DNA of 64,000 nucleotides from an uncultured Bacteroides sp. (GTDB taxonomy: Bacteria; Bacteroidota; Bacteroidia; Bacteroidales; UBA11471): contig OZ007034.1 of the NCBI GenBank assembly GCA_963931635.1, positions 409,285 through 473,284 on the forward strand, read 5' to 3'. Below are positions 30,361 through 46,526 of the stretch, piece after piece. Each line of letters begins with the position of its first letter. The first letter of the stretch is position 1. The notes below the pieces were generated by a model. That model was not told the DNA's origin, made no database searches, and saw only the letters and a list, made by a program, of their open reading frames with translations. A program made the translations under genes and the position numbers.

Positions 30361-32967
30361 TCACGACAACTTCGTCGAAACCACCGGCTCAAACGATACA
30401 TCGACGGCATCGAGATGGAAACGGGGAGACACCCTGCCCGAAACCGCCAGCCGGTGGTATTTATAAGGTGGTGCATAGGTGTTCAGCAGGAGACGCCCTG
30501 GCAGAGGGCCATCGACCTGCGCCCGGTAGATGCAGCCATACCCCTGCTCTGCCCGGTTACTTCCCCACACCGAGAGCGAGAGCGCAACGCCCTCTTCGTC
30601 GCCACACCGTATGGCCAGACGAGGTATGCGTTTCGGCACATCGGGCCACAACTTCACGGCCCGGGTTATAAGCGCAATCTCCACCTCCTCATAGGTCTGC
30701 TCGTCGCACAAGTCATAGACTTCCCCGGACGGACCTATCGCCAGCAGACTGGGATAGAGCGAATAAAACGCTTCATAGGTGACACTGCGCCGTGCCCACT
30801 GCGCCGATGTCAGGTCGAAAACCCACATATAAGGATAGTCGGGCGAGAGAAAAAGCAGTTCCTTCTCGATATAGTTATACCCGACCTCGGCCGTTGTTAC
30901 AAACGTATAGAAGGGGGTCTCATCGGCCGCCGTCGCACCGACCGCCGGAGCCTCTGAGAGCAACGAGACGGCATCGCCCGGCGTGTCATCGGGACCCCCC
31001 TCGAAAGGCTGTGACAAGAGCGACACTTCGGACCCCTGCAACGCCATGAGCCCTTGCTCCGAGAGGTAAAGCACCGCGTCGTCGACCGAAATGATATGAC
31101 GGGGCGACAATGCCACTTCGCGGTTGACCGGCGACTGGCTGGCATATAACATATCGCCACTGCCCTGTCGCAAGGCCCAAATACCATCGGTCGTGAAGAC
31201 ATAGAGCGGGAACTCACCATACTGTCCCTGCGACAGTGCCGCCGTAGCCGCCGCCATACCGAATATGGCTCCGGTGGAAAGGGTGTAGGTGAGATTCTGC
31301 GGGAACGAAAAGGGATTGTAAACCGCCGACACCCGCATCTTGCCGGGCACATACTCTTCGGGATTCTTCACCTCGGAATATAACGTTCCACCCATCAACT
31401 CCTGATTCGAGTTCAGGGTTATGGGAGAGAATGACGGGTGGAGGTAGTAGGCCATATTTTCATTGGGAGAGGGTTTCAGCGTAAAATGATTGTAACGGTT
31501 GGGTGAGTCCGATTCGGTAAGGCCTATAATTTCCAGAGATACGGCCCGGCTGTCGGGATAAGACAAATAGGGCGAAAGACGGAACACATCGGGGGCAAAG
31601 TCCTTTATCAACACGCTTTGTCCCATGGTACCTTTGAGCGTAACCCTCACAAACCCTTTCCCAACGTAAGTCGACATTGCCTCGCCATGATAGTTGTCTT
31701 GATTCACCGAAAAGAGCGAAAGCGGATAGCCGTCGAAAAACCGCGTCGTAACGTTGGCCAGGTGGAGTCTTCCGTTGTAGACATACGACTCCTTGGCCCG
31801 AAGGGTATGGAGCGAGAAATTGTCGACCGAGAGCGTGCGCTGCTGTATCAGGTTGGAGAGTGAGCAGGAATATTCCAGCAGCTTTGCCGTTCCGAGGTCG
31901 TCGGCCAAGGTCTCTATATCAAGCGTAGCGACTTTATAGAAAAGCGATTCGTTGATAATCTGTTCCCGCTGTTCAGAGTCGGACAATAGAGGAACCGAAA
32001 AGCGCAAGACACTGGCCGGGTCGCCATTACCGTTCAGTTCGGCACTGATACGATACTGTTCAATGGTATCGTCCTTGACCAAAGGCAATTCGCGCGAAAA
32101 AAATATGTCGATACCCTTCACAATGTCGCTCCACTGTGCGAGGTTGGCTTTCTTTACCGTGTAATGCACCTTCTCACCCGACAACGTAAAGGGGTTATGC
32201 AGCAACTGCGTTACCTTATCGTCTTTCACGAGGCACAACGAAGCCAGATCGTTTCCAAACGGCAAGGCATCGGAACAACACAGCAACACCGGCGGAGAAG
32301 GATAGATGTAACTGTCGTCGTAAAGCCTCAGAGCGTAACGCACCAAAAACGGGTATGACAAGTACCCGTCGTCGAGCAACGCGCTTTTGACCCGGCTGTA
32401 TGTGCCATAGACCAGCGATGAAAAGCGCACCTTATCGTTGTCGGAGAGCACAAAGGTTTCGTCGTTGGGCGATGGAGAGACAAGGGCATAATCGTTCCAA
32501 GTCTCTTCTTTTACCGTCTTTCCCGACATGGAAAAGGATATTTCGGGAAATTCGGGACTTTCACCCAGAAAATGATAGGAGCCATCGGTAAAGAAAAGAT
32601 AAAGCATCTTCTCCCCGGTGAATACAACCATGGCGTTTTCCACCGCCTCTATACGCTGTATGTCGGGTATTTCAAAACTTTGAGGCTCTTGCACCGGCGT
32701 TATCTGTCCGTCGGCCTCATCGGCCTCATAATACAAATTTGTACCGTCATAGGTAAAATAGTGCTTGTAGGCCTCGTTGGCATGGACAAAGAGAAGGCGG
32801 TGGGAAGCATCGGCCGGTGTATAGCGGCAGACAGGCGTTCCCACAGGTGTCCACACCCCCTCCCGGCAACGGAGGTTGACCAGGTGACTGCACTCTCCGT
32901 CGGGTGAGACCGACGGAGGCAACAGAGTCGATATCCCGGTAATCTGTAATCGTTTCTGGTTTTGCAT
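30361..32967 (-). CDS. Orphan 868-aa protein, possibly phage virion/tail-associated (no recognised motif)
   Basis: Long intact ORF transcribed divergently from the portal-like gene. The start was set to the ATG at 32967 because an exact -7 box lies at 32998-33005, inside the longer track ORF. It is beta-rich and Ser/Tyr/Leu-rich, with no signal peptide. Confidence 0.7.
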   Translation of the reverse strand: MQNQKRLQITGISTLLPPSVSPDGECSHLVNLRCREGVWTPVGTPVCRYTPADASHRLLFVHANEAYKHYFTYDGTNLYYEADEADGQITPVQEPQSFEIPDIQRIEAVENAMVVFTGEKMLYLFFTDGSYHFLGESPEFPEISFSMSGKTVKEETWNDYALVSPSPNDETFVLSDNDKVRFSSLVYGTYSRVKSALLDDGYLSYPFLVRYALRLYDDSYIYPSPPVLLCCSDALPFGNDLASLCLVKDDKVTQLLHNPFTLSGEKVHYTVKKANLAQWSDIVKGIDIFFSRELPLVKDDTIEQYRISAELNGNGDPASVLRFSVPLLSDSEQREQIINESLFYKVATLDIETLADDLGTAKLLEYSCSLSNLIQQRTLSVDNFSLHTLRAKESYVYNGRLHLANVTTRFFDGYPLSLFSVNQDNYHGEAMSTYVGKGFVRVTLKGTMGQSVLIKDFAPDVFRLSPYLSYPDSRAVSLEIIGLTESDSPNRYNHFTLKPSPNENMAYYLHPSFSPITLNSNQELMGGTLYSEVKNPEEYVPGKMRVSAVYNPFSFPQNLTYTLSTGAIFGMAAATAALSQGQYGEFPLYVFTTDGIWALRQGSGDMLYASQSPVNREVALSPRHIISVDDAVLYLSEQGLMALQGSEVSLLSQPFEGGPDDTPGDAVSLLSEAPAVGATAADETPFYTFVTTAEVGYNYIEKELLFLSPDYPYMWVFDLTSAQWARRSVTYEAFYSLYPSLLAIGPSGEVYDLCDEQTYEEVEIALITRAVKLWPDVPKRIPRLAIRCGDEEGVALSLSVWGSNRAEQGYGCIYRAQVDGPLPGRLLLNTYAPPYKYHRLAVSGRVSPRFHLDAVDVSFEPVVSTKLS

Positions 32968-33165: not shown

Positions 33166-35106
33166 ATGAAAGAAACCAATTATCGCATTTTCAACAACCG
33201 CCATCTGATGCCTCCCCGCAAAGCCGATGGGAAAATCAGCAAGGAGAAACGGGTTACAGGCACCCCTCCCGAAGAGGCCGACCTGGAGGTACTGTGGCAG
33301 GCCAAACGGGCCTGGGACAATCTCGACAAATACCGTCGCACACGCACACGCAGCCGCAACTATACCTTTGGCAACCAATGGAGCGATACCGTCGATCTGC
33401 CCGACGGCCGCTGCATGAGCGAAGAACAGTACTTGAAGGAGCAGGGAAAAGTCCCCCTGAAAAACAACCTGATACGCAAACTGATAAAAAACGTTGTGGG
33501 ACAGTTCCGCTCGATACAGACTCAACCGGTGTGTATGTCGCGCAACCGGCAGGACCAGTCGATCAGCGAGCTGTTGACCTCGGCCCTGCAATATGTGCAT
33601 CAGCACAACCGCCTGTGGGAAATCGACGGTCGCACCCTCGAAGAGTTTCTCATCTCGGGCAGCTGTTTCCACAAGATAGGATACGGGAAACGTCAAAACA
33701 AAAACGATGTGTGGATCGACGAAATCAACCCCAACCGCATCTTCTTCAACAATATGGAAGATTCCAGGCTCTGGGACTGCACCCTCATAGGCGAACTGCA
33801 CGACGTGCCCGTGGCACAGATTCTCTCACACTTTGCCCACGGGTCGCGCAGCCGGGCTGCCGAATTGCGCGAGATGTATTGCAATGCTACCGAAAGCCTG
33901 ATAAGAGAGACATATGAAAACCTTACAAGCGAACCACTCGACAACATCGACTTCTTCATTCCGACCGACCAACATCTGTGCCGCATCATCGAAGTGTGGC
34001 GGCTCGAAAACCGGGAACGGCTCATGTGCCACGACACCCTCACGGGCCGATACTACAAGGAAGAGCTCGACCAGACTTCCGCAATCGAAGCCGAGAACCA
34101 GCGTCGCATACGCGAAGCCAAGGCCAAGGGTGTAGAACGGAAAGAGGTGCCACTGATAGAGACCGAATGGTTTGTCGACCAATTCTGGTACTACCGTTTC
34201 TTCACACCCTTCGGCGAGATACTGGAAGAAGGCGAGACCCCCTACTGGCACGGCGAACACCCTTACGTGTTCAAACTCTATCCGCTTATCGACGGCGAAA
34301 TTCACTCCTTCGTCGAAGATGTCATCGACCAGCAACGCTACATCAACCGACTCATCACTTTGGTCGACTTCATCATGGGTTCGAGCGCCAAAGGTGTACT
34401 GCTGTTTCCCGAGAACCAGATTCCCGACGGCATGACCATCGAAGACATTGCCGAGGAGTGGACCCGCTACAACGGCGTGATCCTCTTCAAGCCCAAACCT
34501 GGTGAGGCTCTTCCGCAACAGATTGCCATCAACGCCACCAACATCGGTGCCTATGAACTGCTGCGACTGCAAATGCAACTGCTCGACGACATCTCGGGCA
34601 TACACGGCCCCATGCAGGGACAGGCACCCACTGCGGGGACACCAGCCGCCCTCTACTTCCAGCAGGTGCAGAATGCCGGCGTAAATCTGGTCGACATCTT
34701 CGAGTCGTTCAAGACTTTCAGAGAGAATCGCGATACCAAACTGCTGAAAACCATTCAGCAATACTATGATTACCCGCAATATGTCGATATTGCCGGCGAT
34801 AAGATAAAGGTACGAGAGCTGCCTTACACTCCCGACGAAGTGCGTAATGCCGAGGTCGACATCAACATCATTGAATCGCCCTCTTCACCGGTACTCCGCA
34901 CATCGTCCAACGAATTCCTGCTCGAACTCTTCCGCATGGGACAGATTTCGCTCAGAATGTTACTCGAAAACGGAGCTTTCCCCTTCTCCGACCGACTGTT
35001 GCAGAGCCTCGACAAGCAAGACCAGGAGCAGGCTTCGGCCCTTGCCACCATGGCACAGACACTCTCGCAGGCAACGCCACAGCAACAAGTCATGCCCCTA
35101 AGATAG
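33166..35106 (+). CDS. Phage portal-like protein (646 aa)
   Basis: The size fits a portal. The N-terminal KRAWDNLDKYRRTRTRSRNYTFGNQW resembles the Y-x-G-x-QW stretch of podovirus-type portals. The C-terminus is Gln/acidic-rich. The start was set to the ATG at 33166 (MKETNYRIF). The assignment is by eye only. Confidence 0.6.
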   Translation: MKETNYRIFNNRHLMPPRKADGKISKEKRVTGTPPEEADLEVLWQAKRAWDNLDKYRRTRTRSRNYTFGNQWSDTVDLPDGRCMSEEQYLKEQGKVPLKNNLIRKLIKNVVGQFRSIQTQPVCMSRNRQDQSISELLTSALQYVHQHNRLWEIDGRTLEEFLISGSCFHKIGYGKRQNKNDVWIDEINPNRIFFNNMEDSRLWDCTLIGELHDVPVAQILSHFAHGSRSRAAELREMYCNATESLIRETYENLTSEPLDNIDFFIPTDQHLCRIIEVWRLENRERLMCHDTLTGRYYKEELDQTSAIEAENQRRIREAKAKGVERKEVPLIETEWFVDQFWYYRFFTPFGEILEEGETPYWHGEHPYVFKLYPLIDGEIHSFVEDVIDQQRYINRLITLVDFIMGSSAKGVLLFPENQIPDGMTIEDIAEEWTRYNGVILFKPKPGEALPQQIAINATNIGAYELLRLQMQLLDDISGIHGPMQGQAPTAGTPAALYFQQVQNAGVNLVDIFESFKTFRENRDTKLLKTIQQYYDYPQYVDIAGDKIKVRELPYTPDEVRNAEVDINIIESPSSPVLRTSSNEFLLELFRMGQISLRMLLENGAFPFSDRLLQSLDKQDQEQASALATMAQTLSQATPQQQVMPLR

Positions 35107-35184: not shown

Positions 35185-35694
35185 TTACTCATTAGCCTCA
35201 ACCATCTCAAAGAATCCGCTGATTTCTTGCTGATCAATAGCTTGTCGTACATTAAACCTTTTCACTTGGTCCTCATACCCTCGCTTAGTCACTTTTATCT
35301 CTATTTGCACGTCTCGTGAGTTTTCATAAGTCAACCCCAAAATATTGAACGAACGCGTCTCTTCATACGGCGTTGTAGTGAGGTAAAGTTCATTGGTATT
35401 CTTCACCACACTCGGTATACTGGAAATCACTCTCCAAAATATACGAGCTCCACGCGGATCGCTGTCAAAAGCCCAACGTATGATTGTGCGTTCAAGTGCT
35501 GTTTGTCCGGGAGCATCGCGACTTACCATATTTGAAGCTTCACCTGCAACAATAGTAGGATCGTTCCGATAAGTAGAATTAACTCGAACATTAACAGGTT
35601 CAACCTTGACTCCTTTATAAAGAGATTTTACCGAGGAGGCACAAGCTCCGAACAAAAACAATGCAACAATTGAGAAAAATAATACACACTTCAT
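35185..35694 (-). CDS. Lipoprotein with PEGA-like C-terminal domain (169 aa)
   Basis: Lipobox signal MKCVLFFSIVALFLFGAC. The C-terminal domain has DSDPRGARIFW...TTTPYE...VTKRGYEDQVKRFNV, resembling the PEGA pattern. Confidence 0.7.
   Translation of the reverse strand: MKCVLFFSIVALFLFGACASSVKSLYKGVKVEPVNVRVNSTYRNDPTIVAGEASNMVSRDAPGQTALERTIIRWAFDSDPRGARIFWRVISSIPSVVKNTNELYLTTTPYEETRSFNILGLTYENSRDVQIEIKVTKRGYEDQVKRFNVRQAIDQQEISGFFEMVEANE
35219..35574. repeat. Copy 1 of a 356-bp direct repeat (partner 35741-36096)
   Basis: My hand alignment of the two copies gives 4 mismatches in 356 bp, with an offset of 522 bp. Confidence 0.9.
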
Positions 35695-35703
35695 AATCTA
35701 TCT

Positions 35704-36501
35704 CTAATTATCTATTTTTTTCACTAACTCAAAAAAGCTACTGATTTCTTGCTGATCAATAGCTTGTCGTACATTAAACCTTTTCACTTGGTCCTCATAC
35801 CCTCGCTTAGTCACTTTTATCTCTATTTGCACATCTCGTGAGTTTTCATAAGTCAACCCCAAAATATTGAACGAACGCGTCTCTTCATACGGCGTTGTAG
35901 TGAGGTAAAGTTCATTGGTATTCTTCACCACACTCGGTATATTGGAAATCACTCTCCAAAATATACGAGCTCCACGCGGATCGCTGTCAAAAGCCCAACG
36001 TATGATTGTGCGTTCAAGTGCTGTTTGTCCAGGAGCATCGCGACTTACCATATTCGAAGCTTCACCTGCAACAATAGTAGGATCGTTCCGATAAGTGGCA
36101 TAATTAGCATATGAAGTCGGTTGCATATCCATAAAATAATACCGTGAATCGGGAACCATAATAGCACCGGTAGCCACATCTATCAGCATACCAGGAACCA
36201 AAAACCAAAACAAGTTCAAAAATGTAGTACCATTAAACTTTTTATTTATTTCAAAAGCAAAAGGTTCATACCCCTCAGCCTCAGCTATAACCTGTGTTGG
36301 CTTCAAATTCCTTTTTACTTTAATTTGAGCTGGCAACATTATATCAGCATATCTCTCCCCATCCACAGTTAATGTGACCGGGACTTTAACATTTGGATCA
36401 TTCAACACGACCTTCGATTTTTTCCCATAAAACATCGTTGCACATGAAGTAAGAACAATTAGTGCCAACGACAACATGAAAATCCGTTTCATATTATTCA
36501 T
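35704..36501 (-). CDS. Lipoprotein with PEGA-like domains, paralogue of 35185-35694 (265 aa)
   Basis: Lipobox MNNMKRIFMLSLALIVLTSC. Its C-terminal ~118 aa are almost identical to those of the neighbouring gene. The start was set to the ATG at 36501, downstream of the -7 box. Confidence 0.7.
   Translation of the reverse strand: MNNMKRIFMLSLALIVLTSCATMFYGKKSKVVLNDPNVKVPVTLTVDGERYADIMLPAQIKVKRNLKPTQVIAEAEGYEPFAFEINKKFNGTTFLNLFWFLVPGMLIDVATGAIMVPDSRYYFMDMQPTSYANYATYRNDPTIVAGEASNMVSRDAPGQTALERTIIRWAFDSDPRGARIFWRVISNIPSVVKNTNELYLTTTPYEETRSFNILGLTYENSRDVQIEIKVTKRGYEDQVKRFNVRQAIDQQEISSFFELVKKIDN
35741..36096. repeat. Copy 2 of a 356-bp direct repeat (partner 35219-35574)
   Basis: Same alignment as copy 1. 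Of the 4 differences, 3 are synonymous and 1 changes S to N. Confidence 0.9.
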
Positions 36502-36523
36502 AGTATTAAAATAATTATTGCTG

Positions 36524-36531
36524 CAAAGATA
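36524..36531 (-). promoter_or_regulatory. -7 promoter box TATCTTTG for the lipoprotein pair
   Basis: Exact TAnnTTTG on the minus strand, about 22 nt upstream of the ATG at 36501. Confidence 0.45.
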
Positions 36532-37326
36532 TATTATTAACAATGCGAACAAAAATTTTTTAACAAAAATTTTATGATATACACTTTGTACTGGCTGACA
36601 AAAAAGGTTTGCTAAACATTCAGCGATAGACTTCTACCATACGACTAACATTAAACCATCGTCACAAAGTAACAAATCCGAATAGCTCTAATGAGGTATT
36701 AGAGATGTAACAACTGCGCATACAAACGCCCTTTTCGACTTAATAGGCTGCACCCTGTTTCTATTTCTCAATCAAGAAAAACGACCGAAAGTGGCAGGGT
36801 GATTTCCCGCCACTTCTCTTTCCAAAAGGAAACCCGACCTCAGTCCAGCGAAATATTTTTCAATAATAAGCCGTTTTAAGTCTTATTATCACCATATTTC
36901 TGGCATACGGAATTTACTTAGTATAATCAAAGGTGAAAATTCGTTTCCCAGCTTGCTCCTTCTTGCCTTTCACTATAAGTGTGTTTCTACAAATTACGAA
37001 GCTTATACCCCGATCAGCGTTGACAGACTGAAAAATTACCGCCCATTTCTACAATTACTGCATAACAGTCTATAAAAAGATGCACAAATTGGCCATTACA
37101 TCGCAAAACAACTGGTCTCAGACGTGAGCAAGAATGAGAAAGTCACACAGAATTAGTTCAAAGACAAAAGATAATTGTGAAATCTTTTACTGCCAACAGC
37201 CGACTGTTCCCCGGCTAATCACCAATATCGAAATATCAGATTATTTAAAAGTAAAATATTCCTCATAACCGACAAGATGAAAATAACATTTCACGACAAA
37301 CCGTTGAACCAGATTTTTCTGATATT

Positions 37327-39627: not shown

Positions 39628-41637
39628 CTACATACTGGCCTCACTAAGAGGCATCGACGAGTGGCGACGGGTGCGGCGCACGTGGTCGACGAGAACGGGC
39701 AACGGCTCGGAATAACAGATATAGGTACCGATACAACGGGTAATGAGAATATCGTCGTGATGACCGTCCATGGCACCGAAACTGCCGTTGGGCTTGCGCT
39801 CGAAGACATCGTGTTCGTAGCAGGCCAGCAGGTCGCGCTCGACATAGCCGCTCTCGCGCAGCATCTGTATCTGGTGGTTGATAATGAGCGTCTTGGTCGA
39901 ACGGTTCATGTGAAAGCCCCATCGCGACGGTGCCGATGAGCGTATCGTCTCGGAAGAGGCCCGCGCATAGAGATGCGAGTAGGCGTCGGAAAGGGTATCG
40001 AGTATATACTCAGTGTGCTCTCCGTCGGTGTGCTCGGTTTCAAGCGTATTGCTCTCGATAACGAGCAGAGCCTCTTGGTAAAACGCGGCTATCTGGGCCG
40101 CTTTCCAGGCCAGAAGGTCGTGATCGATGTGTCCGCGCCACTGGGCAACAACCTCGGGCACACCGCCATACATCTGCCAGTAACGGTCGAAGACGACAAT
40201 CACCGAGTAGTCGGCCGAGACCGACCGGCCACCGATGTCGACCACCACGATGTAACGGCCGCTCACCCTGACCGCGTCGTCGGGCAACGCCCACACCTGC
40301 AACTTGCCGGCCGGCTCATCGACAAAGCGCAGCTCTTGGAGCGATTCCCGGCCGAAAGCCTTCTGACCATACACCTCTCCCACCCGGTCGGGCGGGCGGC
40401 AATTCTCGCGCAGCCGCTGTACCTGACGTATGTCAAAGACCCGTTCGCCACTGTGGTTAAAGGCTTCGACATCGTCGGAGGGATACTCTGCCATCATATC
40501 GGCATGGTCGGCATATTCCTTGCGTTTCTGCCGGTACCAGGCTATTGCTTCGAGGGTAGCCCCCCGATGCCACAAAGTGGTCTCGTAATCGTCGAGCGAA
40601 GCGGCAAAGGCGGCAGGGTCATCGACCGGCAGAGCATACATCTCGATGTCGTACCACGGGACGAACAGAAACTCTTTGTCGCTCTCTCCGCGCTTGGCCC
40701 GCTCACACTCCTGGTGAAAGTAGTTTCCCGTACCATTGGCGGTACTCTCCATCACGATGAGCGAATCGGGCAGCAACGCCACCGACCCGCACACGGCACG
40801 CACCAGCGACTCGGGCGAACGCTGTCGCGTACGCGGCCAGAAAGCCACCTCTGATAGGTGTGCCATGACAGCGTCGGAACCGCGCACCGACTCGGGCGTC
40901 TCGGCCGACGACACGGTAACCCGACTTCCCGACCCTTCGATGACCGAAGTATTGCCGGTTCGCTCGTACGGGCGGAACCGCGGTGCCACACCATCGGGCA
41001 TGAGCCAGGCCGGATAATTGTCGAGCAACTTAGTGTACATTCCTTTTATGTGGGCCGCCGCATCTTTGAGGTGGGCACATATTACACTGTGCCAGTTCTT
41101 GCGATGTACCAGCTGTATCCATGCCATATAGAGTTGCACGAGCGTGGAGCCGCCCCACTGGCGGGCTTTCAGCAGAATCAGACGCACGGGCTTGCGGGCA
41201 CGCCGCTGCGATTCGAGGCGCACCAGCAGCTTGCGCTGCGGACGGTTGAGACGGAAGGGCACATCGCCGTCGCCCATCTTGTCTTTGATACGGACAAACA
41301 TCACGGCCCAGAACTCAAAGTCGTACCGTATGCGCACCTTTACCCAGCGGCGCCATACCTCCTCTTTCCAATGCGTACAGGGCGGCCGGCCCAACTCTTT
41401 TTCGATAAAGGAGGCGAGAGAACCGCAACGGCGCAATTCCTGCACGAGCTCCACCTCGTCGAGCATCTCTCGCGGAATATACTGCAAGGGTATTGGGGCG
41501 TCGGGCAGATGCAGGACGACCCGCTCACCCACGGCGGCCCCTTCACCCGTCTCGGGGTGGTATGGAGCCGACCGTTGACGATTACGACGGTCGTTCTCGG
41601 CCAGTATTGCTTTTATCTCCTCCTCGGTTGCGTTCAT
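39628..41637 (-). CDS. Phage terminase large subunit (TerL), full length
   Basis: ATPase half: FRLNRPQRKLL...RLILLKARQWGGSTLVQ (Walker-A-like), AHLSEVAFW (Walker B/catalytic Glu region) and VMESTANGTGNYF. Nuclease half: YIVVVDIGGRSVSADYSVIVVFDR, LLVIESNT and GHHDDILITR. The start was set to the ATG at 41637 because the track start at 41694 is a TTG. Confidence 0.8.
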   Translation of the reverse strand: MNATEEEIKAILAENDRRNRQRSAPYHPETGEGAAVGERVVLHLPDAPIPLQYIPREMLDEVELVQELRRCGSLASFIEKELGRPPCTHWKEEVWRRWVKVRIRYDFEFWAVMFVRIKDKMGDGDVPFRLNRPQRKLLVRLESQRRARKPVRLILLKARQWGGSTLVQLYMAWIQLVHRKNWHSVICAHLKDAAAHIKGMYTKLLDNYPAWLMPDGVAPRFRPYERTGNTSVIEGSGSRVTVSSAETPESVRGSDAVMAHLSEVAFWPRTRQRSPESLVRAVCGSVALLPDSLIVMESTANGTGNYFHQECERAKRGESDKEFLFVPWYDIEMYALPVDDPAAFAASLDDYETTLWHRGATLEAIAWYRQKRKEYADHADMMAEYPSDDVEAFNHSGERVFDIRQVQRLRENCRPPDRVGEVYGQKAFGRESLQELRFVDEPAGKLQVWALPDDAVRVSGRYIVVVDIGGRSVSADYSVIVVFDRYWQMYGGVPEVVAQWRGHIDHDLLAWKAAQIAAFYQEALLVIESNTLETEHTDGEHTEYILDTLSDAYSHLYARASSETIRSSAPSRWGFHMNRSTKTLIINHQIQMLRESGYVERDLLACYEHDVFERKPNGSFGAMDGHHDDILITRCIGTYICYSEPLPVLVDHVRRTRRHSSMPLSEASM

Positions 41638-41698: not shown

Positions 41699-41950
41699 TC
41701 AACGCAGAGCCGCCAGGCGGTCGAGCGTGTCGGATATCACCGAGAGCGTGTCGCTGCCCTCACCGACCGCCGCCACGCGGCCCTGCTTTTCGAGAATCTC
41801 GATGCACTTCAACAGATTTACCTCACTGGTACATTCGGGAATCAACTCTTTCAGTCGGTTGTAACAGAGTTCGAGCATCTCTTCCCGACGGTCTGTCGGG
41901 TTATGTGCCGGAGAGACTTCCGGGGAATTTACAGATTGATTTTTCTTCAT
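41699..41950 (-). CDS. Hypothetical 83-aa protein immediately upstream of TerL (small-terminase position)
   Basis: ATG start, helical sequence, and its stop lies 4-60 nt before the TerL start. The functional idea rests on position only. Confidence 0.5.
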   Translation of the reverse strand: MKKNQSVNSPEVSPAHNPTDRREEMLELCYNRLKELIPECTSEVNLLKCIEILEKQGRVAAVGEGSDTLSVISDTLDRLAALR

Positions 41951-41985
41951 GATTTCTACGATTTTATAAATATCACATCGAACGG

Positions 41986-41993
41986 CAAATTTA
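41986..41993 (-). promoter_or_regulatory. -7 promoter box TAAATTTG for the 83-aa/TerL unit
   Basis: Exact TAnnTTTG on the minus strand, about 35 nt upstream of the ATG at 41950. Confidence 0.45.
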
Positions 41994-41999
41994 CAGGGT

Positions 42000-42007
42000 G
42001 ATATTTG
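42000..42007 (+). promoter_or_regulatory. Near-consensus -7 box GATATTTG for the 176/155/1079-aa unit
   Basis: One mismatch to TAnnTTTG, 58 nt upstream of the ATG at 42065. It is back-to-back with the minus-strand box. Confidence 0.3.
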
Positions 42008-42064
42008 CGACGTGATGTGATTCTTTACAAAAAACAGTATTAACTCAAAAAAAGTAGACAGATT

Positions 42065-42595
42065 ATGATAGTCAATTTACTCAGCGGCATTATCCGCAAT
42101 GCCCGAAACCGTCGCGCGGCAGAGAAGGCCCAGACTCAGGCCTTGAACACCATCAACGCCCAGCAGTCGCAACTCGACAACATGTTCAACAGCGAATACT
42201 ACGGCGACTACATGAACCGCTCCGACGTGCAATCGATGCTGCGCAGCATGCAAGACCAGATGCGACAACAAAACGCCCAGAGTTACAGCATGGCTGCCAT
42301 GACGGGTGCAACACCGGAAGCCATGGCTGCCCAACTGAGCAACAACGCAGCTCTCATGGGCAACACATACAGCCAGATAGGCGCCAACATGTCAAACTGG
42401 AAAAATAATGTGCTCAACAACTACATCAACAACTCCATGGCTCTCAGCAACCAGAAGTACAACTTGTGGAACCAGCAAGCCTCCGACTTCAGAAACGCTG
42501 CCCATCAGTCGATGACCCAGGCTCTCGACAACTACACGCAAATCTATTCGTCTCTTATCGGAGGTGCCGGCAACGTGTTGAGCAACATACTCTAA
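42065..42595 (+). CDS. Hypothetical Asn/Gln/Met/Ser-rich protein (176 aa)
   Basis: Intact ORF and first gene of the plus-strand phage-like unit. It is low-complexity and predicted helical (NAQQSQLDNMFN..., MQDQMRQQNAQS). Confidence 0.6.
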   Translation: MIVNLLSGIIRNARNRRAAEKAQTQALNTINAQQSQLDNMFNSEYYGDYMNRSDVQSMLRSMQDQMRQQNAQSYSMAAMTGATPEAMAAQLSNNAALMGNTYSQIGANMSNWKNNVLNNYINNSMALSNQKYNLWNQQASDFRNAAHQSMTQALDNYTQIYSSLIGGAGNVLSNIL

Positions 42596-42598
42596 TTT

Positions 42599-43066
42599 AT
42601 GGGAGGAAGTGATATGAAAAAAACAGATCATACCGACAACGCCACTCGCGATGTGCGTCGCAGCGTAGCCGAAGGGAAAGGCTTTCTCTCAACCTGCATG
42701 TCGGCGTTGAGAGGAGACAGCGAAGCGGCACACCGCATCGACACTCTGGGCGAGACACTCCTCCTGCTCGGGAAAAGGCCCCGAAAAGAGGGCGAGATAT
42801 CCCTCCCAGGCGACAACGGCGAACGTCTTGAACAGCTCATGGTCCAACACCGCCGTACCCGCAGACTGCGCCCGCAACCTGACGGGTTTCTCTACATTTT
42901 GCGCCAACTCTCGCAAATAAGCCTGCCCACGGGACAACCCGCACTCGACCCGGAGATGAGCCCGGAAGAGCAACAAAAGTTCTACACTTTCAACGTACTC
43001 GTCGCCAACGGGCTCTCCCCGCAAGAGGCCGAAGAGGAGGTCGAAAGAATCTATTCACCCGCTTAA
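42599..43066 (+). CDS. Hypothetical protein (155 aa)
   Basis: ATG lies 3 nt after the previous stop, so it is tightly packed in the operon. I recognised no motif. Confidence 0.55.
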   Translation: MGGSDMKKTDHTDNATRDVRRSVAEGKGFLSTCMSALRGDSEAAHRIDTLGETLLLLGKRPRKEGEISLPGDNGERLEQLMVQHRRTRRLRPQPDGFLYILRQLSQISLPTGQPALDPEMSPEEQQKFYTFNVLVANGLSPQEAEEEVERIYSPA

Positions 43067-43076
43067 AATTTCATTT

Positions 43077-46000
43077 ATGGAACAACCACGCAAATCCTGG
43101 GCCCGCATCGACAGCACCTTGCAACGGAATCTGGGCCATAAAAAATATTATGAAATTCCTATCGAAAATCTTCCGGGAACTCTTGTGGAAAACGACATTC
43201 TGCGTTTTCCCGATTCTGATGCCAATCCGAATGTACCCGAGCATATGATCTTGCGGTATCACGAACCCGACAGCAGACCTCAGGCTCCCGAGACTCTGAT
43301 CTTGCAGCATCACGACCTCGTCAGCAGACCACAGGCTCCCGAGCTCCTCATTCAGCAGTACCCCGAGCTTCGTAACAATCCGAACAGCATCGGTTATCCC
43401 GGGTATCAATTTACCCCCGAAGAAATTTCACGCTTTCTCTCGGATATTAAGCAATATCCTCCCAAAGAGGTTCAGTCCGGCCCACAACCCATCACAACCT
43501 TCGGAGAAGGATTCAGACAGTCGCTCGACCAGTGGAAAAACAATTACAGTTACGACTATGGCAATCTCATGAAGGAGATGAATCACGAAGAAGAAATCCG
43601 TAATGGATTGATGGCCCTTGACGAAAATCCCGAATTGAGCCGAGGTAACGTGCAGGAGATAAACTGGTCTATAAAGGCGCTGCGCCGGGGCATCGCCGAA
43701 TACCGAAGACGCATCGAAGCCGGGGAGGGTACACCCGAAGACGAAGCCGCCATCTTGAAAGATTCGGAAAAGATTCGGGGCCTGTATGCCATGCAACAGC
43801 AATACTACAAGGGCGCTACCCCCGAAGAGGCCGAAGCCTGGCGCAACAACTACATTGCCCAAGGTGGCACGGGCATGCAACGTATGGCCGAAGCTCGGGA
43901 AAATCAGAAAAACTATCGGCCGACCGAAGGGTGGGCTAATGTTGGCGAAATAGCATTTAATCTTGCTCAAGTTGTACCTGCTGTCGCTGCAACCGCAGTA
44001 AATCCCGCAGTCGGTGCAATCGCCATTGGAGCCGGCATGGGTGATATCGCTTCCCAGAATTTGGCACAAAGCAATATGCTGGCCGACCAGATCGAAGAAC
44101 AAACGGGGAAAGAGATCTCGACCGGGAGACGCCTTGCCCAAGCTGGGATAGGCACCACAATTGATGCGGCCACGTCACTATTTGCTCCCACAAAAATGGT
44201 AAATGCCTCACAACCTTTTTTCAAAAGCTTAGCTAAAAACAGCATCTATCAAGGGATCTTTAACGGTACAAACTCTATATTGCATGACTATGGCTCAAAT
44301 CTTACCCTCGGAAATAATCTCACGAATAATGAAATTCTCTCGAATGCAGGAAAGAATTTCCTCGTCGGAGCGGCTACCGGAGCGGGAGCCACGACTGTGG
44401 GGAAGTTAGCAAACAAGGTATCCAGAACAAGCAGCCCTGTCAGAGAGATTCCCGACGAGGCAGGAACAAAGTCTACTTCCTCCGGTGATAAAATTATACC
44501 CTATTCCATTCCAGACCTCGGTTATTATCGTCTCAAGATGAAGCCATTAAGCCCATCCGTCCGTGATGCCCTCATAAAAGAAGGTGTGATCATCGACGAC
44601 ACCCCCACAACGATTCCTTTCGATACCTACCGACGGAAACAGTTGGCACCTCCGGGTACATACGTCCGTCCCTATCAGAATCCGGGAAAGATTGACCCCA
44701 ACGACCTGAGAATGATTCCGCGAGACGAGGTACAGGATAACATGACCATTCCCATGAACCGCTACCAGCTCTCCTATCCTCTGCCCGAAGGCATGAGCAA
44801 TGAGCCCATCACCATTCCGCATGGCAGATACGGTCATGGTTCCTCTTTCTGGGGTGACAATTTCAGACTTTCCTATCCCTTGCCAGAAGGCATGAGCAAT
44901 GAACCCATCACCATTCCGCAGGGAAGATATGGCCATGGTTCCTCTTTCTGGGGGGACAATTTCAGACTCTCATACCCCCTGCCCGACAACTGGGACAACT
45001 CGCCGGTAACGATTCCTTTCGACACCTACCGACGGAAACAGCTGGCACCTCCGGGGACATACGTCCGTCCCTATCAGAATCCGGGAAAGATTGACCCCAA
45101 CGGTCTGAGAATGATTCCAAGGGAAGAGGTACAAGATAACATGACCATTCCCATGAACCGCTACCAGCTCTCTTATCCCCTGCCCGACGACTGGGACAAC
45201 TCGCCGGTAACGATTCCTTTCGACACCTACCGACGGAAACAGCTGGCACCTCCGGGGACATACGTCCGTCCCTATCAGAATCCGGGAAAGATTGACCCCA
45301 ACGGTCTGAGAATGATTCCAAGGGAAGAGGTACAAGATAACATGACCATTCCCATGAACCGCTACCAGCTCTCATACCCCCTGCCAGAAGGCATGAGCAA
45401 TGAACCCATCACCTTTCCGCATGGCAGATATGGAAGTGGCTCCTCTTTCTGGGGCGACAATTTCAGACTCTCATACCCCCTGCCCGACGACTGGGACAAC
45501 TCGCCGGTAACGATTCCTTTCAACACCTACCGACGGAAACAGCTGGCACCTCCGGGAACATACGTCCGTCCCTATCAGAATCCGGGAAAGATTGACCCCA
45601 ACGGTCTGAGAATGATTCCAAGGGAAGAGGTACAAGATAACATGACCATTCCCATGAACCGCTACCAGCTCTCTTATCCCCTGCCCGAGGGCATGAGCAA
45701 TGAACCCATCACCATTCCGCAGGGAAGATATGGAAGTGGCTCATCTTTCTGGGGTGACAATTTCAGACTCTCCTATCCCTTGCCCGAAGACTGGGACAAC
45801 TCGCCGGTAACGATTCCTTTCAACACCTACCGACGGAAACAGTTGGCACCTCCGGGGACATACGTTCGTCCCTATCAGAACCCGGGAAAGATTGACCCCA
45901 ACGGTCTGAGAATGATTCCACGGGAAGAGGCACAGGACTATATGTCTATTCCCATGAACCGCTACCAGTTCTCCTATCCCCTGCCCGACGACTGGGACAA

Positions 46001-46316
46001 CTCACCGATAACGATTCCCTTCGACACCTATCGACGGAAACAGCTGGCACCTCCGGGAACATACGTTCGTCCCTATCAGAATCCGGGAAAGATTGATCCC
46101 AACGGTCTGAGAATGATTCCGCGGGACGAGTTACAAGAGAATATGACCGCTCCCGGAAGTATGGGCCGAGAGCCGCAAGCAGGAGCCACTTCGTCAGAAG
46201 CAAACGACACCGCCACACCATTCAAGGCCTACGAAGACATGTTCGGGATAGACAAGCTGGATGATAATGACAAAAAAGCAAAAACGCCAAGAGGCCGGAA
46301 GAAGAGAAAGAAATAA
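43077..46316 (+). CDS. 1079-aa repeat protein with Gly/Ala-rich hydrophobic segments and a polybasic C-terminus (possible virion internal/ejection or fibre protein)
   Basis: Intact ORF. Hydrophobic stretch VVPAVAATAVNPAVGAIAIGAGMG. About 520 aa of mosaic tandem repeats. The C-terminus reads KAKTPRGRKKRKK. Confidence 0.8.
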   Translation: MEQPRKSWARIDSTLQRNLGHKKYYEIPIENLPGTLVENDILRFPDSDANPNVPEHMILRYHEPDSRPQAPETLILQHHDLVSRPQAPELLIQQYPELRNNPNSIGYPGYQFTPEEISRFLSDIKQYPPKEVQSGPQPITTFGEGFRQSLDQWKNNYSYDYGNLMKEMNHEEEIRNGLMALDENPELSRGNVQEINWSIKALRRGIAEYRRRIEAGEGTPEDEAAILKDSEKIRGLYAMQQQYYKGATPEEAEAWRNNYIAQGGTGMQRMAEARENQKNYRPTEGWANVGEIAFNLAQVVPAVAATAVNPAVGAIAIGAGMGDIASQNLAQSNMLADQIEEQTGKEISTGRRLAQAGIGTTIDAATSLFAPTKMVNASQPFFKSLAKNSIYQGIFNGTNSILHDYGSNLTLGNNLTNNEILSNAGKNFLVGAATGAGATTVGKLANKVSRTSSPVREIPDEAGTKSTSSGDKIIPYSIPDLGYYRLKMKPLSPSVRDALIKEGVIIDDTPTTIPFDTYRRKQLAPPGTYVRPYQNPGKIDPNDLRMIPRDEVQDNMTIPMNRYQLSYPLPEGMSNEPITIPHGRYGHGSSFWGDNFRLSYPLPEGMSNEPITIPQGRYGHGSSFWGDNFRLSYPLPDNWDNSPVTIPFDTYRRKQLAPPGTYVRPYQNPGKIDPNGLRMIPREEVQDNMTIPMNRYQLSYPLPDDWDNSPVTIPFDTYRRKQLAPPGTYVRPYQNPGKIDPNGLRMIPREEVQDNMTIPMNRYQLSYPLPEGMSNEPITFPHGRYGSGSSFWGDNFRLSYPLPDDWDNSPVTIPFNTYRRKQLAPPGTYVRPYQNPGKIDPNGLRMIPREEVQDNMTIPMNRYQLSYPLPEGMSNEPITIPQGRYGSGSSFWGDNFRLSYPLPEDWDNSPVTIPFNTYRRKQLAPPGTYVRPYQNPGKIDPNGLRMIPREEAQDYMSIPMNRYQFSYPLPDDWDNSPITIPFDTYRRKQLAPPGTYVRPYQNPGKIDPNGLRMIPRDELQENMTAPGSMGREPQAGATSSEANDTATPFKAYEDMFGIDKLDDNDKKAKTPRGRKKRKK
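44574..46150 (+). repeat. In-frame mosaic tandem repeat: 201-bp module A (x6) and 99-bp module B (x4), order A-B-B-A-A-B-A-B-A-A
   Basis: Module boundaries read from the sequence at 44775, 44874, 44973, 45174, 45375, 45474, 45675, 45774 and 45975. Each module starts with Y-P-L-P. A2 (44973-45173) and A3 (45174-45374) differ at 3 of 201 nt. Confidence 0.9.
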
Positions 46317-46442: not shown

Positions 46443-46515
46443 GCGGCAGTAGCTCAGTTGGTAGAGCATCAGCTTCCCAAGCTGAGGGTCGCGGGTTCGA
46501 GCCCCGTTTGCCGCT
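46443..46515 (+). tRNA. tRNA-Gly (anticodon CCC)
   Basis: GCGGCAGTAGCTCAGTTGGTAGAGCATCAGCTTCCCAAGCTGAGGGTCGCGGGTTCGAGCCCCGTTTGCCGCT folds by hand into a 73-nt cloverleaf. Anticodon loop TTCCCAA, T-loop TTCGAGC, discriminator U. Confidence 0.9.
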
Positions 46516-46526
46516 CTCATTTTTCG

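Follow-up and report, generated by a model that had tools for sequence, protein, structure and literature searches.

The window analysed here is a stretch of 64,000 nucleotides from an uncultured Bacteroides sp. (GTDB Bacteroidales, UBA11471; assembly GCA_963931635.1, contig OZ007034.1, positions 409,285 to 473,284 of the forward strand), and all coordinates below are counted from its first letter. It is bacterial chromosome, with genes for IF-2, NusA, SufBCDS, L21/L27, PGI, SecA and aminoacyl-tRNA synthetases. Our subject is the last gene of a three-gene operon, p176-p155-target (42065-46316, forward strand), which belongs to a phage-derived cassette of seven genes. Its 1079-aa product, hereafter the target, consists at residues ~509-1021 of ten in-frame modules of two types, A and B, in the order A'-B-B-A-A-B-A-B-A-A*. 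The features of the target, all on the forward strand, are as follows.

43077..46316, +: target gene, 1079 aa, the 'big protein' of the cassette (open reading frame (ORF) call; exact product on 10 contigs)
43246..43343, +: tandem duplication of 51 bp x1.9 with a 17-aa unit, ...SRPQAPE... (Tandem Repeats Finder)
43485..43925, +: near-invariant alpha-helical core, aa 137-283, helical by prediction (invariant alignment columns)
43935..44066, +: hydrophobic helical-hairpin segment, aa 287-330, dimorphic (Kyte-Doolittle up to 1.83)
~44601-44774, +: module A', A-type without the YPLP head; proportion of synonymous differences (pS) 0.24 and of non-synonymous differences (pN) 0.016 relative to A1
44775-44873, +: module B1, 33 aa
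44874-44972, +: module B2, 33 aa; 11 of 99 nt differ from B1, giving one amino acid difference
44973-45173, +: module A1, 67 aa, forming with A2 a near-identical adjacent pair
45174-45374, +: module A2, 67 aa; 3 of 201 nt differ from A1, longest identical run 184 nt
45375-45473, +: module B3
45474-45674, +: module A3, 3-4 nt from A1 and A2
45675-45773, +: module B4
45774-45974, +: module A4, an older copy, 16-18 nt from A1-A3
45975..46139, +: terminal module A*, A-type, diverging past MIPRDEL
46209..46313, +: C-terminal motif TPFxAYEDMFGIDKL and polybasic tail RGRKKRKK (invariant alignment columns)

The repeat array and its variation between lineages

Cutting the target at YPLP yielded nine units with a headless A-type copy ahead of them, and Tandem Repeats Finder gave periods of 99, 201 and 300 bp across 44769-46130 with 87-97% matches. 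This map reproduces what a preliminary description, made from the letters of the window, had reported: the module order, the lengths of A (67 aa) and B (33 aa), their common head YPLP-x4-N-x-P-[VI]-T-[IF]-P, and the 3 of 201 nt that separate A1 from A2. The same description had called the repeats near-perfect, which is true of A1-A3 (3-4 nt apart) but not of A4 and A*, which differ from A1-A3 by 16-34 nt, nor of the four B copies, with pairwise differences of 9-13 in 99 nt. The two module types are themselves alike. B is similar to the first half of A (local alignment score of 59 compared to 19±4 for shuffles) and also to its end (p≈0.006), and the core motif [IVLF]-P-x-x-x-[YH] occurs 16 times as against 1.4 times expected from shuffles. 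The repeat half contains 15% Pro and 12% aromatic residues.

Pooled B copies gave a pS of 0.383 and a pN of 0.032 (pN/pS 0.08), and the older A copies a pS of 0.2-0.3 and a pN of 0.03-0.055. Differences between B copies are almost all synonymous, and hence the module peptide is under selection. A1, A2 and A3 are linked by identical runs of 116-184 nt, a substrate for recombination. The array is an assembly of old duplicates with a selected peptide sequence, to which one very recent duplication of A has been added. Recent expansion, which had been read earlier from the near-identity of adjacent A copies, is thus borne out for A1-A3 but not for the B copies, which are old duplicates under purifying selection (pS 0.38, pN 0.03). 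Unequal homologous recombination between modules would be the process by which the array grows and shrinks.

The array of the window is real, and to the alternative that it is an expanded or mis-joined assembly repeat we assign practically no weight. Short-read contigs do often end within the array (L010, L011, L013, L015, L023, L024) and some short alleles contain chimeric modules, as that alternative would have it. Against it, the identical 1079-aa protein is found on 10 contigs, eight of which are longer than 0.2 Mb; among them are long-read Canu 'tig' contigs, which come from two or more ENA assemblies and agree with the window in module DNA. This rules out an assembly origin for the window allele. 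For two shorter alleles, of 779 and 912 aa, an artefact is still a real concern, both being short-read alleles in near-identical backgrounds with chimeric modules. In the 912-aa allele (L003, MEGAHIT contig), the N-terminal 1500 nt differ from the window at 2 positions only and the modules look like B2/B3 and B3/B4 chimeras; either a genuine unequal crossover or collapse during assembly could have produced it. The locus breaks or collapses in short-read assemblies, and so module copy numbers derived from metagenome-assembled genomes (MAGs) are not to be trusted.

Between related genomes, the array differs in the number, order and type of its units, as listed below.

Window strain: A' B B A A B A B A A*, 10 modules
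L017, a divergent allele whose protein is 84% identical: A' B B A B A B A B A A*, 11 modules
Sister species (SecA 96% identical): 2-3 modules, protein of 638-678 aa
L023-L026 (TerL 89% identical): 35-aa unit LPPATYRSQIPFPEDIDPNVQTIIENGTYYRERPE, x2-4
P0028: 16-aa IPxGTY unit, about 17 copies

The L017 assembly is credible because its A copies lie 8-12 nt apart. All four unit types contain a ΦP-x-x-x-Y core, and every lineage keeps the array end [ST]PF-x-x-Y-x-x-x-FGI[DE]-x-L followed by a poly-Lys/Arg tail. Each lineage would thus have built its own unit, of 16, 33/67 or 35 aa, around one core motif. Module number and order had been suggested to vary between cells or strains; they vary between strains, species and lineages, with no sign of variation between cells, the array being the same on all 10 contigs of the window's strain.

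Outside the array, the target combines parts that evolve in different ways. The polybasic C-terminus RGRKKRKK and the short N-terminal repeat, both pointed out in the preliminary description, are present. The 17-aa N-terminal duplication is absent from the aligned sister-species orthologues; in P0028, residues ~46-95 hold a 25-aa unit x2, whose origin is independent of the 17-aa x2 in the window. The core at aa 137-283 is 85% identical to that of the sister species and 94.6-100% identical within a species, and remote relatives share it at 20-26% identity. With a deeper alignment that included these remote relatives, AlphaFold2 predicted the core to be helical with a predicted local distance difference test score (pLDDT) of 70-86. 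The next segment, aa ~286-330, is the sole strongly hydrophobic stretch of the target by Kyte-Doolittle analysis. It falls into two, possibly three, allele classes common to two sister species, so that the window hairpin is 66% identical to that of the sister-species protein P0013 and 35% identical to that of P0001 from the same species, whereas the adjoining aa 137-283 follow the species tree. This dimorphism points to trans-species polymorphism or to recombination between species. At the other end of the target, the TPFxAYEDMFGIDKL motif recurs in the L026 lineage and in P0028, there with a poly-Lys tail. We found no signal peptide or lipobox in the target sequence.

The protein is rare. The target gene was found in one of 185,579 GTDB species representatives, an uncultured Bacteroidales MAG. 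A profile search of 1.84 billion representative proteins retrieved 33 relatives (E ≤ 0.001), among which the repeats were matched only by the close clade and P0028, the rest matching the N-terminal core alone. With the target as query, no family in Pfam, PHROGs, NCBIfam or PADLOC reached significance, neither the family profile nor the repeat half had a significant match among PDB sequences, tblastn of the N-terminal part against 50,697 phage records gave no match, and scans of IMG/VR with the remote-homologue alignment and with the A+B module gave no relatives. A word-index search with the alignment of distant relatives returned close relatives only, and a query with remote members reached genomic context. 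The array itself yielded one recurrent weak signal, to Pfam PF13368 (Toprim_C_rpt, the ssDNA-binding repeat at the C-terminus of topoisomerase I), on the B modules (xEPITIPQGRYG, profile positions 4-16). Summed over the array it amounts to 23.8 bits (E=4.4e-5), with no single stretch significant and one B module at E=0.29. Because 13 of the 57 profile positions are matched and no unit matches over the full length (B has 33 aa, the domain 57), we do not assign the repeats to Toprim_C_rpt and regard the resemblance as one at the level of a motif. The likeness of YPLP and PPGTY to eukaryotic YPxL and PPxY motifs was likewise taken as chance, since PPGTY is PPxxY and the protein has no export signal. 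No described family among those searched (Pfam, PHROGs, NCBIfam, PADLOC, PDB) fits the modules, in agreement with their not having been recognised in the preliminary description. The repeat type is undescribed, and its family is tiny and confined to uncultured gut Bacteroidales. It is a new kind of repeat on a ΦP-x-x-x-Y core, re-invented with other unit lengths in each lineage.

A phage-derived cassette fixed in the chromosome

The genes of the cassette are listed below. Identities are to L021/L022, and the ratio of non-synonymous to synonymous substitution rates (dN/dS) was obtained against the sister species.

30361..32967, -: ~868-aa phage structural-like protein, divergent from the portal gene (phrog_32516, E=1.3e-71)
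33166..35106, +: P22-like portal, 646 aa (Pfam PF16510, E=4.5e-36); identity 66%, dN/dS 0.15
39628..41637, -: large-terminase-like gene TerL, 669 aa as called, ORF extending to 41694 (phrog_2, E=4.7e-19); identity 70-73%, dN/dS 0.05
41699..41950, -: p83, just upstream of TerL, kept in all cassette loci; identity 52-68%, dN/dS 0.16
42065..42595, +: p176, first gene of the three-gene operon, gp70 homologue by hidden Markov model (HMM); identity 25-51%, dN/dS 0.11
42599..43066, +: p155, fast-evolving operon partner upstream of the target, conserved in position; identity 23-30%, dN/dS 0.33
43077..46316, +: target; identity 23-26% in the N-core only, dN/dS 0.28 in the N-terminal part

TerL lies 1.4 kb upstream of the target, which thus has a packaging gene as neighbour. 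A small terminase subunit gene is usually found just upstream of TerL, and p83, from its position there, may encode that subunit. In the window, the cassette is interrupted by two lipoprotein genes, DUF4919, a low-molecular-weight (LMW) phosphatase gene, L27 and L21, and the portal gene is 8 kb off. In L022, all seven genes form one contiguous block near PGI (78% identical), in which the ~868-aa gene adjoins the target orthologue and the portal is adjacent too.

Cassette order is kept in L001 (sister species), L017, L021 and L022 beside SecA, PGI or Lnb_N, and the cassette was also found in L027-L035. In L021 it lies beside SecA and Lnb_N, SecA there being 83% identical. Scanning metagenome contigs with TerL gave at least 282 relatives, of which the 80 best loci were kept; among these, TerL-p83|p176-p155-big occur together in every complete locus with a TerL at least 70% identical. 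None of the seven ORFs was disrupted in any locus examined. The dN/dS values of 0.05-0.33, at a dS of ~0.9-1.2, compare with 0.04 for both SecA and PGI (dS ~0.5-1.2), and p155 and the target are the fastest-evolving genes of the cassette. Altogether, the cassette is a selected, vertically inherited, chromosomally fixed phage-derived element of uncultured gut Bacteroidales. In the literature searched we found no description of a Bacteroidales gene transfer agent or of a domesticated terminase-portal cassette.

Two other origins for the gene were considered. A phage or an intact prophage as its home was rejected, given the vertically inherited chromosomal cassette and the lack of a capsid gene nearby. 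A decaying prophage remnant, in which the repeats would be neutral products of slippage or recombination in a disused gene, might explain why housekeeping genes (L21/L27, LMW phosphatase) lie among the phage-like ones and why there is no capsid gene. It is nonetheless scarcely credible: the cassette is not a decaying prophage because synteny is kept across genomes with SecA 83% identical and dN/dS is 0.05-0.33, well below 1, at a dS of ~1. The intact ORFs in each locus and the purifying selection on the B modules speak against decay as well.

As to ancestry, the cassette genes have homologues in BF1-TP2, BS-TP4 and BKO1-TP3, isolated temperate Bacteroides phages (PMC12694917). In BF1-TP2, five cassette genes or their relatives have counterparts. 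TerL is 46% identical to gp60, the portal 42% identical to gp61, and the ~868-aa protein 26% identical to gp33 (tblastn E=3e-63), and the HMM of p176 matches gp70 (E=1.5e-15). The phage genes gp70, gp69 and gp68 form one operon, with gp68 a polyvalent protein of 3633 aa containing InPase, ART-PolyVal, PBECR5 and LPD38 domains. Remote relatives of the target have, instead of the repeats, an alpha-helical C-terminal domain (phrog_14770) that matches gp68 residues 2153-2462 (E=2e-26). Moreover, in metagenomic phages related to BF1-TP2 (TerL ~52% identical), TerL is followed on one strand by a p176-like gene, a gene of ~430 aa and a giant polyvalent protein of >2400-2700 aa; loci with the order TerL-p176-like-giant are L064-L084 (including L081 and, as an example, L066 9968-21981), L087-L090 and L100. 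This order matches TerL|p176-p155-big, and the target thus occupies the slot of the giant polyvalent protein. Judged by these sequence relationships, the cassette has its ancestry among phage relatives of BF1-TP2.

Loci L037-L062 contain a solitary TerL-like gene with 62-64% identity to that of the cassette; it is chromosomal and comes without other cassette genes (for example, L049 9980-12013 in a 1.97-Mb contig). Its neighbours include a TonB-dependent receptor, an Eco57I-type N6 methylase and a TIR plus WG-repeat protein.

Candidate roles of the target protein

The preliminary description had offered three roles for the target: a virion internal or ejection protein, a fibre, or a multivalent binding scaffold. 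Gene neighbourhood and phage homologies make the first the best fit, and nothing supports the fibre. We tentatively favour, with slightly less than even confidence, an internal, ejection-type or cargo protein with a multivalent repeat array in its C-terminal half. In such a protein, the conserved helical core (aa ~137-283) would dock the target to partner proteins, and the hydrophobic hairpin together with Gly-rich helices (aa ~287-450) would be membrane-active, as in podovirus ejection proteins. The C-terminal half would be an extended Pro/Tyr/Arg-rich array of ΦP-x-x-x-Y motifs, closed by the conserved FGID motif and the Lys/Arg tail. The array may act as a multivalent thread binding nucleic acid or a partner, its module number setting valency and length. 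Packaging and ejection of the target are suggested by analogy with the phage proteins discussed below; the membrane activity of the hairpin region is likewise putative, as are the binding partners of the ΦP-x-x-x-Y motifs.

Several observations weigh against this assignment. The target lacks any LPD or enzymatic domain recognised by Pfam, and no capsid, scaffold or tail homologue of BF1-TP2 lies within 10 kb of any cassette locus or in the 64-kb window. Comparison of the N-core with the N-terminus of the giant proteins by hhalign was not significant (E=0.004 at 8% probability, and E=0.27), and we do not claim homology between the two. Structure prediction adds little. The full-length AlphaFold2 model is uninformative (mean pLDDT 27), and an N-core model with a mean pLDDT of 57 gave weak BFVD matches (TM-scores ≤0.26), the best of which include first segments of giant phage proteins, some of them LPD-containing. 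No confident structure was obtained for the repeat half (pLDDT ~20-30, shallow alignment), and 'extended' or 'non-globular' are provisional terms for it. DNA binding would, similarly, be suggested only by residue composition, by the basic tail and by a partial Toprim_C_rpt match of 13 residues.

Comparison with known systems places the target closest to phage-derived internal proteins. For phage polyvalent proteins, packaging in the head has been predicted (Iyer et al. 2017, PMC5512222). Proteomics of podovirus phi24B detected its LPD-domain protein gp47 in virions, and an ejection role was proposed for it (bioRxiv 10.64898/2026.04.10.717836). Like such large polyvalent proteins (BF1-TP2 gp68, phi24B gp47), the target follows a p176/gp70-like gene next to TerL and portal, is large and fast-evolving with a variable C-terminal 'payload', and has remote relatives carrying the gp68 2153-2462-type domain. 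It differs from them in having no LPD, enzymatic or toxin domain, in a payload consisting of a Pro/Tyr repeat array and a polybasic tail, in an N-core without detectable relationship to their N-terminus, and in being encoded in a bacterial chromosome rather than a phage. We infer that the target is a phage-derived protein of the internal or polyvalent type with a lineage-specific repeat payload.

The ejection or internal core proteins of podoviruses (P22 gp7/gp20/gp16, T7 gp14-16) offer a second parallel. They too are encoded by three co-transcribed genes near portal and terminase, and contain hydrophobic or Gly-rich segments with no recognisable enzymatic fold; the portal of the cassette is of the P22 type. 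They lack long tandem Pro/Tyr modules, however, and no sequence or profile similarity between them and the target was found. Gene transfer agents and viriforms resemble the cassette in being fixed in the chromosome and vertically inherited under purifying selection, as seen here across genomes with SecA 83-96% identical, and in that their genes can be split over sub-loci. They differ from it in encoding a head and a delivery structure, whereas the 10 kb around each cassette contained no capsid, scaffold, head-completion or tail genes.

The lack of nearby capsid and tail genes at every cassette, in spite of strong selection on TerL and portal, is what a different account takes as its starting point. 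According to this account, which we consider unlikely though worth weighing, the capsid-less cassette, with a terminase, a portal, the ~868-aa structural protein and three internal-protein genes of its own, would hijack or sabotage the capsids of infecting BF1-TP2-like phages, leading to packaging of host DNA or to abortive assembly. The repeat protein would then be a fast-evolving effector or interface in an arms race with those phages, with multivalent binding to DNA or phage, and the cassette an undescribed chromosomal 'portal-and-terminase hijacker' of gut Bacteroidales, serving defence and/or gene transfer. The fast evolution of p155 and the target, the trans-species dimorphism of the hydrophobic hairpin and the neighbourhood of the related solitary TerL-like gene (Eco57I-type methylase, TIR plus WG-repeat protein) are all in its favour. 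Set against these, PADLOC profiles match none of the seven cassette proteins, the capsid genes could sit at another genomic locus, as they do in multi-locus gene transfer agents, and the idea is entirely conjectural, with no helper phage identified for the host.

Two further alternatives concern what the array does. It might be a semi-rigid Pro-rich spacer or ruler, or an envelope-binding segment (for example, one spanning periplasm or peptidoglycan in DNA delivery), of which length alone matters. The 15% Pro content would suit this, as would unit lengths and copy numbers that vary freely from lineage to lineage between a conserved core and a conserved tail. We nevertheless rate it as distinctly unlikely: a pure spacer would need neither module peptides conserved at non-synonymous sites (pN/pS 0.08) nor a ΦP-x-x-x-Y core in all four unit types, and an array of 510 aa, if extended, far exceeds periplasmic dimensions.

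A variable surface fibre or adhesin, in which module shuffling alters host or receptor specificity or evades immunity, would account for a mosaic module order that differs between strains. Contingency-type repeat arrays of bacterial surface proteins are indeed comparable to the target in their in-frame units (here 99/201 nt) with long identical runs and in a copy number that differs between strains. The target departs from them in showing no variation within the window's strain, in having no export signal and in its setting within a phage-derived packaging cassette. In addition, nothing suggests a beta-helix or fibre fold, the module sequences are conserved rather than diversified, and the operon slot is that of a phage internal or polyvalent protein, not of a tail fibre. 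A surface role is thus very improbable and was rejected.

The array marks the fastest-evolving component of a conserved cassette in abundant uncultured human-gut Bacteroidales. If active, the cassette would add a new type of domesticated phage element to those of the dominant gut phylum, be it a gene-transfer device or an anti-phage hijacker, and would make the evolution of ejected or internal phage proteins by module exchange accessible to study.

Minor features around the cassette

Past the target stop codon, at a distance of 127 bp, lies one further feature.

46443..46516, +: tRNA-Gly(CCC) (ARAGORN)

This tRNA gene may be the ancestral site of phage integration. The 114-bp region between the divergent genes p83 and p176 contains an 8-bp inverted repeat, ATCACATC ... 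GATGTGAT (41975-42030), with arms ~34 bp apart; it could be an operator for both divergent operons, or it could be chance. The two lipoprotein-like genes that interrupt the cassette (35185-35694 and 35704-36552, reverse strand) are paralogous, with 369 nt at 98% identity, and are absent from the same position in L001 (sister species) and L017. The lowest G+C content of the window (0.41) is at 36-38 kb, in the region of this pair.

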